From an uncultured Candidatus Saccharibacteria bacterium (GTDB taxonomy: Bacteria; Patescibacteriota; Minisyncoccia; Phycocordibacterales; UBA9973), in assembly GCA_964441495.1 (NCBI GenBank), contig CAYTXV010000003.1, positions 3,137 to 67,136 on the forward strand: 64,000 bases of DNA. The letters are read 5' to 3'. Position 1 is the first letter of the stretch; each line of letters starts with the position of its first letter. Of this stretch, positions 34,003 through 63,750 are shown one piece after another. A program made the translations under genes and the position numbers. The notes beneath the pieces were generated by a model. The model worked only from the letters and a program-made list of their open reading frames with translations, was not told the origin of the DNA and ran no database searches.

Positions 34003-37000
34003 TTACTCGATACTTATCTCTCCCCCACCTAGCACAACTTCTTGTGCACCTACTGTTTTTTTCAATTCCTCACCAAACTTCTCATATATCTCTTGATACT
34101 GAGTCGGGAGCGTAAGCGTGATCATATCTTGTGGCATGAGGCCCTTTTCTTTGCGCAGATCTTGGATCATGCGGATGAGTTCGCGGTAGTCACCTTCGAG
34201 TTTGAGGTCAGGAGTAATGGTCATATCAAATCCAATTTCTCCTACCTTGATTTCTTTTACGTTCAACTCATCTTTGAGTAATTCATAATATGACTCCAAT
34301 CCTTCTGTGTTGATCGTAAATGATTGAAGTGGTTGGCGCACGGGCACTGCTTCTTTTTTTCGAAGTGCATTTCCTTCGGTGCAAAGATCTCTGACTTTTT
34401 GCATATCTACAGTTATTTTTTCATCCACACTTCCCGCTTGTGGCCACACGCTCAAATGCACGCTCTCTTCATCATTTTCTAGTTTCAATTTCTGCCAGAG
34501 GTCTTCTGCCATAAACGGTGCAAATGGCGCAAGGAGTTGTGCAGTGGTTTTGAGTACTGCATATAGAGTACTTTTGGCATCTATATCTCCATCCTTGAGA
34601 CGATCACGACTTCGGCGCAGGTACCATGTGGAGAGATCATCGATGAAGTCTCGCAGGATACGTGTCGGGGTAAACAGATCATACGCATCAAGACCTTGTG
34701 TCACTTCTATCGTCGCCTGAGCGAGTCGTGCCATGATCCACTGATCGAGGACATGCGTGCTTTCTTTTGCGGCTCCCTCTACCGCTGTATCACGATACTG
34801 TTCGTAGAATGCATACACATTGCCGAGCAGGTTGAATACTTTGTTGTTGATCTCTGCGACTGACTTTTCGTCATAGTTCTTACCTTCTCCAGGAGCATTG
34901 ACTGAATACATCCAGTAGCGCACTGCGTCTACTCCAAACTTCTCGATCTGATCAAACGGTTCAATCACGTTGCCGACTGACTTACTCATCTTCTTGCCGT
35001 CTTTGTCGAGCAAGTGCCCGAGACAGATCACGTTCTTGTACGGCGTGCCGCGCCCCATGAGCACACCCACTGCAAGGAGTGTATAGAACCACCCGCGTGT
35101 CTGATCGATCGCTTCAGATATGAAGTCTGCTGGATATGGCAAATCGTCCTTGTGCTCAAACGGATAGTGATCTTGCGCAAACGGCATCGAGCCACTATCA
35201 AACCACACGTCCATCACCTCTTTGACACGCGTGTAGTCTTTGCCATCTTTGTGGAGGATGACATCGTCGATATGTGGACGGTGTAAGTCAAGCTCGTACT
35301 CCTCGTTGTGTGGAAGTGGTACGAAATCAATCTGTCTGATTTCTGCATTATCAAAGTTGCGATATGCACGCGTCTCATCAAACAGCTTGTCCAATGAAAC
35401 ACCTTTGGCATGCAGATCAAGCGCGCGAGTCACTGCGCCATGTGAGATGATGAGTATCTTTTTGCCCTGATACTGCCGTTCAATATCGTAGATACACGCA
35501 CCTGCTCGAGCAAGCACCTGTGCATATGATTCACCATCTACTGTTTTGAACTTGTACCGATCATCGCTTGCGTTTCGCAGTGCAAAAAAGTCTTCATGCA
35601 CCTTACCATTGAACTCACGTCCCACATTCCATTCACCGATTCGCGCATCGGTGATGATTTGAGCTGGATCCATACCAAGCACTTCTGCGACAAGACGTGC
35701 AGTTTCTTGGGTACGAGCAAATGGTGATGCAATAATGAGGTCGACACTACCGAGAGTAGTTGCCGCAGTGTGCACCTGCTCCCTACCTTGTGCAGTGAGA
35801 GGATCTGCAGAAGTACTGTCTATACTCCAAATGTTTTGGGTGTTGCTCTGTGACTGGCCATGGCGCATCACGTAGTAGGTGTTACCAGACTTCTTGGCAT
35901 ACTGCTTGAGCGTCGCGACACTATCGACGACGATGCGCTCACCATCACTGCTCTGCCAGATCGGAAGCGGTGTCCCCCAGTATCGCTCACGCGAGATTGC
36001 CCAGTCTTTGAGTCCATCGAGCCACTCACCAAATCGCCCTTCACGGATATGCGCTGGCTCCCAGTTGATAGTGTTGTTTTCTGCGATGAGCTTGTCTTTG
36101 AGAGAAGACATACGGATATACCACGAGTCACGCGCGTAGTAGATGAGCGCAGTCTTGCATCTCCAACAGTGTGGATATGAGTGTTCGTACTTTTCTTTTT
36201 TGAACAAGAGTCCTCTGTGTGCCAAGTCTTTGATGATATCGACTGCAACCTCTTCGTCTTTGACAAAGCGCCCTTTCAAGAAATCGATATCGCAGGTGAA
36301 GTGCCCTGCCTCGTCCACAGTATGCACCTTGGGGAGCTGGTGCTTGGTCGCAACCTCAAAGTCATCTGCTCCATACATCGACGCGATGTGCACGATACCG
36401 GTACCATCACTTGTGGTCACAAAGTCTGCTGCATAGACTTTGTATGAGTGTTCTGACTGAAGTGCTGGTACAGCATAGAGCGGGGTGTACTCCATGCCCA
36501 CCATCTCACTTCCCTTGTGCTGAGCAACGATTTCGTATTCTGTCCCGATCACCGAAAGCCTATCTTTTGCAACAACAAGTATTTCATCTCCCACTTTTGC
36601 TTCCACATACTCGATATCACTTCCAACAGCAAGCGCAACATTGCCCGGAAGCGTCCACGGAGTCGTTGTCCATGCGACAAAGTACGCGTTTTCAAATCCT
36701 TTGATTGGGAACTTCGCGTAGACCGTGAGGTCCTTGTCATCTTGATATCCTTGTGCAAGCTCGTGTGATGCAAGTGTCGTACCACAGCGCGCGCACCATG
36801 GGAGCACGCGATAGTCTTTGTACAGGAGCCCATCATTGTGCACCTTGGCGATGATAGACCAGAGACCTTCCATATAGGAGGCATTGAACGTGTAGTACGC
36901 ACTGCGCTTGTCGACCCAGTAGCCGATACGATCGGTGAAGTCTTCCCAGTCTTTGATGTAGGTAAACACTGAGTCCTTGCAGGCTTTGTTGAACGCGGCG

Positions 37001-37350
37001 ATGCCGTAGGTTTCGATATCTTTTTTGTTTGTAAGTCCGAGCGCCTTTTCGATCTGAAGCTCTACCGGGAGTCCGTGCGTGTCCCACCCTGCTCTTCGTG
37101 GTACATAAAACCCTTGCATCGTTTTGTACCGCGGGATCACATCTTTGAATGCACGCGCTTCGAGGTGGTGCAGTGCTGGCTTTGCGTTTGCGGTCGGTGG
37201 TCCTTCAAAGAACACAAATTCTTTTTGTCCTTTGTTCTTTGCAACAGTCTTTTCAAAAATCTTGTTTTCCTTCCAAAACTCAAGTACCGCCTCTTCGCGA
37301 AGCGCTGCGCTACTTTTTTGTCTTGATGTGTGTGTGTCTGTTTGTTCCAT
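34003..37350 (-). CDS. ileS: Isoleucyl-tRNA synthetase carrying an internal histidine-phosphatase domain
   Basis: Start set to ATG 37350 (MEQTDTH), downstream of the T-box leader; PPTANAKPALHH (HIGH), KMSKSVGN, WCARC / CWRC motifs, editing-domain TTTPWTLPGN; 1115 aa. Confidence 0.93.
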   Translation of the reverse strand: MEQTDTHTSRQKSSAALREEAVLEFWKENKIFEKTVAKNKGQKEFVFFEGPPTANAKPALHHLEARAFKDVIPRYKTMQGFYVPRRAGWDTHGLPVELQIEKALGLTNKKDIETYGIAAFNKACKDSVFTYIKDWEDFTDRIGYWVDKRSAYYTFNASYMEGLWSIIAKVHNDGLLYKDYRVLPWCARCGTTLASHELAQGYQDDKDLTVYAKFPIKGFENAYFVAWTTTPWTLPGNVALAVGSDIEYVEAKVGDEILVVAKDRLSVIGTEYEIVAQHKGSEMVGMEYTPLYAVPALQSEHSYKVYAADFVTTSDGTGIVHIASMYGADDFEVATKHQLPKVHTVDEAGHFTCDIDFLKGRFVKDEEVAVDIIKDLAHRGLLFKKEKYEHSYPHCWRCKTALIYYARDSWYIRMSSLKDKLIAENNTINWEPAHIREGRFGEWLDGLKDWAISRERYWGTPLPIWQSSDGERIVVDSVATLKQYAKKSGNTYYVMRHGQSQSNTQNIWSIDSTSADPLTAQGREQVHTAATTLGSVDLIIASPFARTQETARLVAEVLGMDPAQIITDARIGEWNVGREFNGKVHEDFFALRNASDDRYKFKTVDGESYAQVLARAGACIYDIERQYQGKKILIISHGAVTRALDLHAKGVSLDKLFDETRAYRNFDNAEIRQIDFVPLPHNEEYELDLHRPHIDDVILHKDGKDYTRVKEVMDVWFDSGSMPFAQDHYPFEHKDDLPYPADFISEAIDQTRGWFYTLLAVGVLMGRGTPYKNVICLGHLLDKDGKKMSKSVGNVIEPFDQIEKFGVDAVRYWMYSVNAPGEGKNYDEKSVAEINNKVFNLLGNVYAFYEQYRDTAVEGAAKESTHVLDQWIMARLAQATIEVTQGLDAYDLFTPTRILRDFIDDLSTWYLRRSRDRLKDGDIDAKSTLYAVLKTTAQLLAPFAPFMAEDLWQKLKLENDEESVHLSVWPQAGSVDEKITVDMQKVRDLCTEGNALRKKEAVPVRQPLQSFTINTEGLESYYELLKDELNVKEIKVGEIGFDMTITPDLKLEGDYRELIRMIQDLRKEKGLMPQDMITLTLPTQYQEIYEKFGEELKKTVGAQEVVLGGGEISIE
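35326..35883 (-). other. Histidine phosphatase (phosphoglycerate-mutase-like) domain nested within IleRS
   Basis: YYVMRHGQSQSN (RHG), LTAQGREQ, IASPFARTQETA, RIGEWNVG, DGESYAQV, ILIISHGAVTRAL; in frame between YWGTPLPIW and DLHRPHIDD...VWFDSGSMP. Confidence 0.85.
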
Positions 37351-37540
37351 ATATAAAATAAAACTCGCCCTTAGAAAATAATCATGTTGACTACTTTCCA
37401 AGGACGAGTCTCTAGGTATAGAGTCGTGGTACCACCTTGGTTACTTCTCATTTGGATGGGTTCTACTCCCCTCTTATCAGGTTTCTTCCCAGAAGCTCGG
37501 GGTTGATAGCCCCTCAGACGCTTATGTCACCATACTACCA
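37351..37540 (-). promoter_or_regulatory. T-box riboswitch leader (Ile specifier) with its promoter, controlling ileS
   Basis: Minus strand: TGGTAGTAT -10 (37540-37532); hairpin GGGG-CUAUCAA-CCCC with AUC+A in the loop (37513-37499); T-box core GGUGGUACCACG (37436-37425); antiterminator CCAAGG[UGGUACC]...CCUUGG; alternative ACUCGUCC/GGGCGAGU helix followed by UUUAUUUU. Confidence 0.8.
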
Positions 37541-37557
37541 CACCGTGCTTGGTGTTG

Positions 37558-38196
37558 CTAGATAGAGCGCCCGTTTGCTGCATCTGCGTGATCCTGTTCG
37601 ATCATGGCGATGATGCGCTCAACGAGTCGCTTGGGATCATCGTCAAATATCACGCGATCCCCGGGACGGTTGCCTTTTGCGATCATGTCTTTGATCTGCT
37701 CTGCCATGGTCCACGGACCTTCGAGGACACCGATCGGTTTACCATCTTCAAATGCGATCGTAAACTCATGGATTGTACCGATGCGTCCACACCCGATGAT
37801 GATCGCGTCGCAGCTGCGCGTGAACAAGATGTCTCGTCCCGGAAATCCAAAGCCGGTATAGATGATGAGATCCATGTAGTCGACCGGGAGTCGATAGGTC
37901 TCAAGGTGCTCGCGTTGTGTTGCAGCTGGTGAAAGCCCGATAGAGACACCGTGCTCTTCTTTGGCACCCATACACGCCCACAGTGGGAACCCTGTCGTTG
38001 CACCACTGATGATGATCCCGCCTTGTCTGATGATCTCTCGTCCAAGTTCCTTGGCCTTGTCGAGCGCATTGAGTCCGCAGTGTCCTGTTTCTGCAGCACC
38101 AGAGACGCCGATTTTCAATTTGAGGTGTCCATGCTTCTCATCGTTTGCAAGTGGACCGTTATAACAAACGTATTTTTGTGCTGTTGTATCACTCAT
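37558..38196 (-). CDS. SLOG/LOG-family Rossmann protein (TIGR00725-like)
   Basis: KIGVSGAAETGHCG, IISGATTGFP, IIIGCGRIGTIHEF resemble the LOG/TIGR00725 PGGxGTxxE-type motif. Confidence 0.65.
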   Translation of the reverse strand: MSDTTAQKYVCYNGPLANDEKHGHLKLKIGVSGAAETGHCGLNALDKAKELGREIIRQGGIIISGATTGFPLWACMGAKEEHGVSIGLSPAATQREHLETYRLPVDYMDLIIYTGFGFPGRDILFTRSCDAIIIGCGRIGTIHEFTIAFEDGKPIGVLEGPWTMAEQIKDMIAKGNRPGDRVIFDDDPKRLVERIIAMIEQDHADAANGRSI

Positions 38197-38199
38197 AGA

Positions 38200-39582
38200 T
38201 TAGTTGCAATCCAATTCTACCACATCACCTTCTTGTGGTGCATATGCTTCAACACCGAGATAGTCACGTAGACGCTGCGTGAGATACAGAGAGCTCTTGG
38301 GTTCACCCATTGCAACGTATACCTTTTTGAGTGAGTCTGCAGTTTGCTCAACAAATTCGATGAGGTGATCAGAGTCTTTGTGTCCAGAGTATCCATCGAT
38401 GAACACCACGTGTGCTTTGACTGGGATCGTCTTGCCGTTGATGGTGACCTCTTTGGCACCATCTTGGATTGCGCGCCCCATTGTGCCGAGCGATTGATAT
38501 CCCGTGAGGAGGAGTGTGTTGTTAGGATCAGGGAGATAGTTTGCCTCGTGGTGCAGGACTCGACCGCCGTTACTCATGCCGCTCCCTGCGATCACAATCT
38601 TGGGGTTGGTAGTGTGAAGGATGTCTTTTGATTCCTCGGTGAGCAGTGTCGACTTGAGTCCAGGGAAACTAAAGATGTCATCACCTGCTCCGACGAGTGT
38701 GCGTGCAAAGTCGTTAAAGTATCGCGCATGCTTTGCATATACTTTGGTAAGTTTAATGCCAAGCGGTGAATCAAAAAAGATAGGCATCTGCGGCACGCGA
38801 TCATGCTCGACGAGCTGATCTATCTCAAAAAGGAGCTCTTGGCTTCGTTCAAGTGAAAACGTCGGGATAATCAGTGTCCCCTTTCGTTTGTAGTTGTCTT
38901 CGATGGTTGCTTCGAGCCGCTCGCGCCGGACTGCACGCTCGGTGTGGTTGCGGTCACCATACACACTCTCCATGAGGAGATAGTCGACTTTTGTAAGCGC
39001 TTCGGTATCGCGCAAGAGCGGTGAGGGAGAGTTTCCGAGATCTCCAGTAAAGACAATCTTTTTGTTGTTGTAGATGAGCTCGAGCATCCCCGATCCGAGC
39101 ACGTGGCCTGCATCACGATAGCGAAACACATATTCTCCGATAGTAAGGTCTTGATGGTAATCAATCACGTTCCAGAGTTTCATCACCTCTTGCATTGTCT
39201 TGGGGCTATAGATGTCTTTGAGCGCTTCGTTTTCGCTATGTGAGAGGATGTTTGCGGTATCTTCGAGCATGAGCTCTGCGATGTCTTTTGTAGGGATTGT
39301 TGAATATATTTTGCCTTTGAACCCATCGTGCACAAGTTTGGGAATGCGTCCGATGTGATCAATGTGCGCATGGGTCACAAAGAGTATATCGATCGAAGAC
39401 AGATCATATGGAAATGGATTCCAGTTCCAATCATCAGCCATCTTGGTTCCTTGGTTGAGTCCGCAATCAACGAGAAACTTGATCCCTGCTCCTTCAACAA
39501 GGAAGTTTGCACCGGTCACACTTCCTGTACCACCAGCAAAGGTGAGTGTGAGTGTATGATTTTTTTGCGCAGCGTCAGGCAT
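38200..39582 (-). CDS. MBL-fold beta-CASP family hydrolase (RNA-metabolising type)
   Basis: FVTHAHIDHIGRIP (HxHxDH), AGHVLGS, beta-CASP-length insert, SGHKDSDHL C-terminal motif. Confidence 0.85.
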   Translation of the reverse strand: MPDAAQKNHTLTLTFAGGTGSVTGANFLVEGAGIKFLVDCGLNQGTKMADDWNWNPFPYDLSSIDILFVTHAHIDHIGRIPKLVHDGFKGKIYSTIPTKDIAELMLEDTANILSHSENEALKDIYSPKTMQEVMKLWNVIDYHQDLTIGEYVFRYRDAGHVLGSGMLELIYNNKKIVFTGDLGNSPSPLLRDTEALTKVDYLLMESVYGDRNHTERAVRRERLEATIEDNYKRKGTLIIPTFSLERSQELLFEIDQLVEHDRVPQMPIFFDSPLGIKLTKVYAKHARYFNDFARTLVGAGDDIFSFPGLKSTLLTEESKDILHTTNPKIVIAGSGMSNGGRVLHHEANYLPDPNNTLLLTGYQSLGTMGRAIQDGAKEVTINGKTIPVKAHVVFIDGYSGHKDSDHLIEFVEQTADSLKKVYVAMGEPKSSLYLTQRLRDYLGVEAYAPQEGDVVELDCN

Positions 39583-40288: not shown

Positions 40289-40768
40289 TTACATCAAGTC
40301 GTCCGAAAATACGAATTTGGTATCAACCTTTTCGTATGCGACGAGCTCATCGACAGTGAAAAATCGCTCGATTTCTCGTGCGCCGTTTTCGACTGAGTCA
40401 GATGCGTGGACAACGTTGGACTGCATCGAGAGTGCGTAGTCGCCGCGGATCGTACCACCTTGTGCTTCATATCCCTTGGTAGGACCGACGATAGTGCGGA
40501 TAGCATCGACTGCCTTGATACCGGCAACCGCCATCACCACAACAGGCGATGACATCATGAACCGCTCAATGCGTGGATAGAACGGCTTGTCAGCAACGTG
40601 TGCGTAGTGTTCGCGTAGAAGCGCTTCTTTGAGCTCCATCATCTTCATCCCGATGATTTTGAGCCCCTTGCGTTCAAAGCGAGTAATGATCTCCCCGACG
40701 AGGGATCGCTGCACTGCGTCTGGCTTGATGATGATAAGTGATCGTTCTTCTGTTTCGTGGATTTTCAT
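40289..40768 (-). CDS. ndk: Nucleoside diphosphate kinase
   Basis: ERSLIIIKPDAVQRSLVGEIITRFERKGLKIIG; NVVHASDS active-site His. Confidence 0.95.
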   Translation of the reverse strand: MKIHETEERSLIIIKPDAVQRSLVGEIITRFERKGLKIIGMKMMELKEALLREHYAHVADKPFYPRIERFMMSSPVVVMAVAGIKAVDAIRTIVGPTKGYEAQGGTIRGDYALSMQSNVVHASDSVENGAREIERFFTVDELVAYEKVDTKFVFSDDLM

Positions 40769-61498: not shown

Positions 61499-61505
61499 GT
61501 AATTG

Positions 61506-61578
61506 GGGGCCTATCGGGAATCGAACCCGAATCGAAGGTTCCACAAACCTCAGTGTTAACCGTTACACCATAAGCCCC
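61506..61578 (-). tRNA. tRNA-His (GUG) with genomically encoded G-1; CCA not encoded
   Basis: Hand-folded cloverleaf: G(-1)+GGGCTTA acceptor, D stem GTGT/ACAC, anticodon loop TTGTGGA, T arm TCGGG-TTCGATT-CCCGA, discriminator C. Confidence 0.9.
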
Positions 61579-63661: not shown

Positions 63662-63745
63662 GCGCGGGTGGCGAAACTGGTAGACGCACTACCTTGAGGT
63701 GGTAGCGGGAGCAATCCTATGGAGGTTCAAGTCCTCTCTCGCGCA
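63662..63745 (+). tRNA. tRNA-Leu (GAG), class II long variable arm; CCA not encoded
   Basis: Hand-folded: acceptor GCGCGGG/CTCGCGC, D arm GCG-AAACTGGTAGA-CGC, anticodon loop TTGAGGT, variable arm, T arm GGAGG-TTCAAGT-CCTCT. Confidence 0.92.
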
Positions 63746-63750
63746 CAATG

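Follow-up and report, generated by a model that had tools for sequence, protein, structure and literature searches.

Ultrashort (US) ileS T-boxes of Actinobacteria (M. tuberculosis, M. smegmatis, N. farcinica) were reportedly described by Sherwood et al. in 2015, and are represented by the structures 6UFG and 6UFH. Current models hold that transcriptional T-boxes need a long Stem I platform for fast tRNA capture and that ileS T-boxes with a short Stem I rely on the IIA/B pseudoknot, deletion of which from such a T-box causes a ~1,200-fold loss of tRNA binding (PMC7583486). Stem III, which is flanked by a purine-string motif (5'-RRRxG-Stem III-AA-3'), has been called indispensable for the aminoacylation sensor, and in the T-boxes that have been studied the main steric sensor for the 3'-aminoacyl group is described as a G-U wobble beside the T-box bulge (PMC7583486). 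The S-turn residues quoted for the N. farcinica structure are GAA / GUAGA (PMC7583486). In TBDB, the short-Stem-I model was searched in Actinobacteria only. Here we describe a leader upstream of ileS in a 64,000-nucleotide stretch of patescibacterial DNA (the window) that keeps some of these modules and dispenses with others, and that is very probably, judging from its sequence and that of its relatives, an Ile-specific T-box riboswitch controlling ileS by transcription attenuation.

The gene downstream of the leader encodes an isoleucyl-tRNA synthetase with the Pfam domains tRNA-synt_1, Anticodon_1 and His_Phos_1, the last of which (PF00300, RHG motif, E 1.4e-30) is inserted at aa 493-658 (window 35377-35874, minus strand). 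At least 120 IleS homologs were found, with identities of 61-100%, the named ones belonging to Nomurabacteria, Paceibacterota, Minisyncoccia or Patescibacteria. The combination of IleS and His_Phos_1 is common to all 120 homologs among the matches listed, and this shared domain set implies a clade-wide His_Phos_1 fusion. The co-directional genes located 5' of ileS (37558-39582 and 40289-40768, minus strand) encode a SLOG cluster4 (LDcluster4) protein, a beta-CASP metallo-beta-lactamase nuclease with an RNase J-like domain set and a nucleoside diphosphate kinase, and the SLOG-family gene, which adjoins the leader, ends with a TAG stop codon at 37560-37558 (minus strand). A serine hydrolase and a RecO_N protein are encoded 3' of ileS. 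Only two tRNA genes are present in the 64-kb window, tRNA-His(GUG) at 61505-61577 (minus strand) and tRNA-Leu(GAG) at 63662-63746 (plus strand), and no tRNA-Ile gene was found in the window or in ~98 related loci. Coordinates of the leader elements, the promoter-like elements and the gene are as follows.

37555-37560, minus strand: weak -35-like hexamer TAGCAA, overlapping the stop codon of the SLOG gene
37532-37540, minus strand: extended -10 element TG-G-TAGTAT, 18 nt past the upstream stop, with a putative promoter function
37398-37526, minus strand: T-box leader in the antiterminator conformation, as delimited by covariance-model matches
37493-37523, minus strand: ultrashort Stem I, with covarying helices recovered de novo by RNAalifold
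37504-37507, minus strand: terminal-loop specifier AUC (Ile, 37507-37505) with A (37504) as its 3' purine, upstream of ileS
37458-37490, minus strand: Stem II with S-turn, its upper helix covarying at 3/3 pairs
37441-37457, minus strand: purine-rich single-stranded linker AUCCAAAUGAGAAGUAA, 17 nt, near-invariant in relatives
37398-37440, minus strand: antiterminator CCAAGG[UGGUACC]ACGA…UCGUCCUUGG, -14 kcal/mol alone
37355-37412, minus strand: intrinsic terminator, a 25-bp hairpin with U-tract, -34 kcal/mol, z -9.8, called by a terminator scan
34003-37350, minus strand: ileS, 1115 aa, ATG at 37350-37348, the proposed T-box-regulated gene

Stem I consists of a basal helix, AAGC (37523-37520) / GCUU (37496-37493), a K-turn-like part, GUCUGA (37519-37514) / GA (37498-37497), and a specifier hairpin, GGGG (37513-37510)-CUAUCAA-CCCC (37502-37499), which combines a 4-bp stem with a 7-nt terminal loop. 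This hairpin, at 37513-37499, is the one in which a sequence-only reading of the window had seen AUC displayed together with a purine. Both the basal helix and the specifier stem show two-sided changes in 3/4 pairs, and the tandem GA/GA between these two covarying helices (GUCUGA/GA in the window, GUUGAA/GGA in the consensus) is K-turn-like in sequence. Stem II has a lower helix, GGG (37490-37488) / CCC (37460-37458), an internal loop, AAGAAA (37487-37482) / GGAGUAGAA (37469-37461), whose S-turn strands are near-invariant in relatives, and an upper helix, CCU (37481-37479) / AGG (37472-37470), closed by the loop GAUAAG. The 17-nt linker that follows in the window contains neither the IIA/B pseudoknot nor a Stem III helix, and retains the purine string AGAAG-U-AA that normally flanks Stem III. 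An all-column covariation scan detected no stacked extra helix that might substitute for the missing modules. GAGAAG in the linker can pair with GCUUCU at the Stem I/II junction in the window, but the pairing is broken in relatives, and this candidate pseudoknot was rejected.

The T-box core predicted by the same reading, GGUGGUACCACG, occurs once in the window, at 37436-37425 (minus strand); taken alone, this 12-mer is not significant in 64 kb, since 0.34 occurrences are expected at one mismatch or fewer and 29/100 shuffles gave at least one match. The antiterminator geometry proposed around it is also present in every part. The A1 helix is formed by CCAAGG (37440-37435) and CCUUGG (37403-37398), the T-box bulge is the 7-nt sequence UGGUACC (37434-37428), and the upper helix A2, ACGA (37427-37424) / UCGU (37407-37404), carries an inserted hairpin, CUCUA-UACC-UAGAG (37423-37410); A1 and A2 each covary at 3 pairs. 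Bacterial tRNA-Ile generally has A73 as its discriminator, and the U that occupies the N of UGGN in the window leader predicts a tRNA with discriminator A73.

Searches with the Rfam T-box model RF00230 gave no match in the window at the gathering score (93 bits). A permissive search of 401 nt returned 17.5 bits (E 0.084), in an alignment that places the T-box core and antiterminator (the 3' half) at high posterior probability and deletes ~78 Stem I positions as well as Stem III. No match at gathering was obtained in 23 related patescibacterial loci, fuller members included. For controls we used ileS loci of other phyla: Firmicute ileS leaders and one from Chloroflexi, placed likewise with respect to the gene, scored 94-144 bits, but RF00230 missed both actinobacterial ileS control loci, where short-Stem-I T-boxes are established. 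Since known actinobacterial ileS T-box loci are missed as well, failure with RF00230 does not refute a T-box, and the sub-gathering score of 17.5 bits is uninformative as the test that the sequence-only reading had suggested. Weak Rfam matches to CRISPR-DR66, AniS and snoRNAs near the leader were rejected as chance matches to U-rich and (CA)n sequence; the (CA)n run ACACACACACA (37327-37337, minus strand), which gave the spurious AniS match, forms part of the first ileS codons and encodes TDTHTS.

Covariance models built for this family performed differently. Model R1, constructed from 11 simple leaders including that of the window and applied with a cut-off of E <= 1e-3, identified a single site in the window (99.2 bits) and 37 loci among relatives, every match lying 5' of ileS and co-directional with it. 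A leader used as a seed is bound to match the resulting model, so model R2 was built from relatives only, with the window sequence left out; in the 64-kb window it matched only 37526-37398, with 84.9 bits and an E-value of 3e-18. The distribution of the leader is patchy, with 37 of ~98 patescibacterial ileS loci carrying it, and loci with and without the leader have similar IleS identity to the window (53-68%). A locus labelled Saccharibacteria (L001, 48% IleS identity) contains a full version with both IIA/F-box and Stem III.

An exact core, GGUGGUACC(A/G)CG, is found no more than 400 nt upstream in 36/91 related ileS loci, and leaders anchored on this core share the basal helix, a GA-rich K-turn-like loop and a 4-bp stem with an NN-AUC-A loop, followed by GGG-AAGAAA-[variable helix]-AGUAGAA-CCC, a linker ending in AAAUGAGAAG(U/C)AA, the T-box core and a terminator. 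Among 34 confident leaders, with pairs counted on the model-fitted alignment, 94.2% of cells are paired, against 34-53% when the partners are slid, and compensatory (two-sided) changes occur in 16/25 pairs; none of 500 shuffles matched any of five covariation measures. Given an unfitted MAFFT alignment, RNAalifold also arrives de novo at the two helices of Stem I (basal and specifier), the two parts of Stem II, and A1. The antiterminator and specifier helices, for which the earlier reading had asked for covariation in homologous leaders, do covary. In each of the 34 leaders AUC is followed by a purine (A in 33 and G in the other), while the two loop positions before AUC vary freely, and UGGU, indeed the whole of UGGUACC, is invariant. 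The recurrence of the leader at 37 related loci, its covarying helices and its invariant AUC-purine and UGGUACC support the Ile-specific T-box that had been proposed upstream of ileS. The A2 pair next to the bulge (alignment A4 columns 304/351; window 37427/37404) is A-U in 30/34 leaders, G-C in 3 and G-U in 1.

The leader is probably transcribed from a promoter of its own. The element TG-G-TAGTAT that was proposed as a -10 box just after the upstream stop is present, and would place the transcription start at ~37526-37524. Most of 33 relatives have a TAnnnT, as a rule with TG in front, equally far from the first modelled base, and this fixed position supports the promoter call, although the -35 element of the window is weak. 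A spacer of 17 nt separates TAGCAA from the -10, relatives often have TTGCAA or TTGAAA in its place, and a consensus promoter scan made no call at the window promoter. Seven loci (L100, L104, L107, L108, L112, L129 and L146) share a near-identical promoter, TTGCAA-N16-TGTTATTAT, located ~50 nt 5' of the leader at fixed spacing, pointing to conservation of a sigma-70-type promoter among these CPR bacteria.

Downstream of the T-box core, the sequence can adopt a second structure. The pairing of CUCGUCCUUGG (37408-37398) with CUAAGGGCGAG (37374-37364), followed by UUUUAUUUU, had been recognised in the sequence-only reading, and turns out to be part of a 25-bp hairpin with its 5' arm at 37412-37388, a loop, ACA, and its 3' arm at 37384-37360; the U-tract, UUUUAUUUU, lies at 37363-37355. 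The 5' arm takes up the 3' strands of A2 and A1, so that the two conformers are mutually exclusive, and folding of both gives -34 kcal/mol for the terminator and -14 kcal/mol for the antiterminator. An equivalent terminator of 17-23 bp, built on the A2/A1 3' strands, is present in 34/34 leaders, and in 33/34 at least 5 U are found within the next 8 nt.

These observations bear on the possibility that the leader is a translational ultrashort ileS T-box, with a sequestrator/anti-sequestrator switch in which the hairpin hides the ribosome-binding site. The decoding module is indeed ultrashort, a type described as translational (10.1101/2023.02.28.530422; PMC7583486), and in the window just 13 nt lie between the end of the hairpin and the ATG, and 5 nt between the U-tract and the ATG (the U-tract is followed by AUAU-AUG). 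However, a hairpin of 17-23 bp in 34/34 leaders with a U-rich tail directly after it in 33 is the signature of an intrinsic terminator, and no Shine-Dalgarno-like sequence is found between the hairpin and the ATG in the window. Among relatives, moreover, leader and start codon lie ~31 to ~800 nt apart, with whole ORFs between them in two loci (L135 and L150), spacings at which occlusion could not work. The U-tract, the lack of a Shine-Dalgarno sequence and the variable distance to the start codon make a translational mechanism very unlikely; of the two alternatives earlier proposed for this hairpin, terminator or sequestrator, the first stands and the second, for which there is no SD/anti-SD logic, falls away. 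The ORFs that lie between the T-box terminator and ileS encode 246 aa in L135 (1614-2354) and a hydrophobic protein of 86 aa in L150 (1826-2086), and their presence implies that the T-box in these loci would control a two-gene unit.

The elements and mutually exclusive helices of the leader, their covariation and conservation 5' of ileS, the unchanging AUC-purine and UGGU, and the terminators present in all relatives are consistent with the following transcriptional mechanism. Transcription would begin at the extended -10 promoter just past the upstream gene, and the nascent leader would form the ultrashort Stem I on its K-turn-like base, with AUC-A exposed in the terminal loop; Stem II would fold alongside, its S-turn purines buttressing the codon-anticodon duplex when tRNA-Ile(GAU) docks via its anticodon. 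If this tRNA is uncharged, its 3' NCCA end would pair with UGGU of the T-box bulge, helped by the single-stranded purine string (AGAAG-U-AA), and the antiterminator (A1 and A2) would be locked, allowing RNA polymerase to read into ileS. With charged tRNA, or none, the A2/A1 3' strands would join the far more stable 25-bp terminator and transcription would stop at the U-tract, 5 nt before the ATG. We infer the binding of tRNA, the sensing of its charge, the contribution of a purine string without its Stem III helix and the use of the promoter from the arrangement and conservation of these elements.

Between Stem II and A1, the window and 14/33 relatives have an unfolded linker of 15-17 nt, and the tally of modules across the 34 leaders is 15 with neither, 6 with Stem III only, 8 with the IIA hairpin only and 5 with both, as exemplified by L123, L127, L121 and L105, respectively. 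The IIA hairpin, with an F-box-like CCCGUUAUAGC, is thus found in 13/34 leaders, IIA/B being absent from the window and 20 others; in the relatives that have the hairpin, no consistent register for the IIB pairing was seen by eye. In the 11/34 leaders with Stem III, the insertion falls precisely between GAAG(U) and an A-run, which implies that the reduced forms keep the 5'-RRRxG…AA-3' purine string, as AGAAG-U-AA, minus the helix. On a rough NJ tree of IleS, without support values, the reduced state is interspersed among module-bearing sisters in at least 5 places, implying that the modules have been lost or gained repeatedly; the loci L123 and L127, for example, are nearly identical except in Stem III and in the length of Stem II.

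With the Stem I platform, IIA/B and the Stem III helix all missing, the competence of the minimal form is not self-evident. The leader could accordingly be regarded as a decaying T-box relic that binds no tRNA and survives as a leaky terminator, since three modules reported to be functionally important (the Stem I distal elements, IIA/B and Stem III; PMC7583486) have gone. Yet the reduced subgroup is itself under structural selection, with 95.9% of its cells paired and compensatory changes in 11/25 pairs. The invariance of AUC-purine and UGGUACC and the near-invariance of the S-turn strands and purine linker speak against decay, as does the recurrence of the reduced state in at least 5 separate places on the IleS tree. 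In addition, a constitutive terminator of -34 kcal/mol before an essential, single-copy synthetase gene would be expected to be strongly deleterious without antitermination. A relic is consequently a highly improbable explanation.

A further alternative retains the attenuator and replaces its ligand, so that a T-box-like switch would be thrown by a protein, either a K-turn-binding member of the L7Ae family or IleS itself, and not by tRNA. Such a protein could, speculatively, take the place of the missing RNA modules, and the K-turn-like motif at the base of Stem I is conserved. This reading is scarcely credible, given that an invariant Ile codon in the loop and a UGGU complementary to NCCA are explained specifically by tRNA recognition, and that no candidate gene is consistently linked to the leader, its neighbours in the window encoding a SLOG-family protein, a beta-CASP nuclease and a serine hydrolase. 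A mini-ORF of four codons, two of them for Ile, precedes ileS within the terminator loop and 3' arm: AUG-AUU-AUU-UUC-UAA (Met-Ile-Ile-Phe; 37385-37371, minus strand). Attenuation through such a leader peptide has almost nothing to recommend it, as the mini-ORF lacks an evident ribosome-binding site and is conserved in no relative, the terminator loops and arms of which differ and contain no AUG there, so that it probably arose by chance.

For the preferred reading, a transcriptional T-box that responds to tRNA-Ile, the question that follows is how little RNA such a switch requires. We regard it as an evenly balanced possibility that a minimal T-box of ~110-130 nt, in which the K-turn and ultrashort specifier hairpin, the S-turn of Stem II, the purine string and the bulge act together, would decide co-transcriptionally (kinetically) on the charging of tRNA-Ile. 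Should RNA alone suffice, then the tRNA-elbow platform would not be required for transcriptional T-boxes, the IIA/B pseudoknot would not be required for short-Stem-I decoding, and the Stem III helix, unlike the purines that flank it, would not be required for aminoacylation sensing. With all four combinations of modules present among close relatives, the patescibacterial family amounts to a natural deletion series, and its reduced members offer a very small scaffold for structural work and engineering. If correct, our interpretation extends T-box regulation into the Patescibacteria/CPR, where it has probably been under-counted because Rfam misses the whole family and the short-Stem-I model of TBDB was confined in scope. 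In the literature searched, which for US T-boxes consisted of later open-access papers, we found no paper on a T-box in CPR/Patescibacteria, and that literature likewise contained no description of a natural T-box without Stem III; an earlier mention of transcriptional ultrashort forms may exist.

Membership of the leader in the T-box class in the broad sense is well supported, but assignment to RF00230 or to the translational US class fails on specific features. Canonical RF00230 members, exemplified by Firmicute ileS, have in common with it the terminator/antiterminator switch, the T-box sequence, the purine after the specifier and the S-turn in Stem II; the K-turn at the base of their Stem I corresponds to the K-turn-like part here. 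In contrast to them, the window leader is without the S-turn of the Specifier loop, the AG bulge and, at the distal end, the interdigitated T-loops that form the tRNA-elbow platform, has no IIA/B or Stem III, and measures ~110-130 nt rather than ~220 nt. The actinobacterial US ileS T-boxes also regulate ileS and present AUC and a purine in a terminal loop, on a very short Stem I, K-turn-based in their case, that has no tRNA-elbow platform (as defined in 10.1101/2023.02.28.530422); the Stem II S-turn strands GAA / GUAGA are alike, and the UGGUACC bulge, the A1 and A2 helices and the occurrence of insertions in A2 are common to both. The likeness to reduced actinobacterial ileS T-boxes pointed out in the sequence-only reading is borne out by a Kitasatospora ileS leader, the whole decoding module of which aligns under R1 (CGGG-AAGAUCA-CCCC-GGAGC…CCGGAAGA…UUAGAACCGG). 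The two differ in host, which here is a patescibacterium (CPR), and in output, a terminator with U-tract here and an SD sequestrator there. The IIA/B pseudoknot/F-box and Stem III of the actinobacterial class are absent from the window leader, which is therefore the more reduced of the two, since these modules are missing in addition to the platform. The A2 pair by the bulge, A-U in 30/34 leaders, differs moreover from the G-U wobble described as steric sensor elsewhere (PMC7583486). With the glyQS-type, finally, the leader shares the character of a reduced transcriptional T-box without the IIA/B pseudoknot, but the two have been pared down in different ways: glyQS retains Stem III together with a long, elbow-binding Stem I platform and is without Stem II (PMC7583486), whereas the window leader keeps Stem II and drops both the Stem I platform and Stem III.
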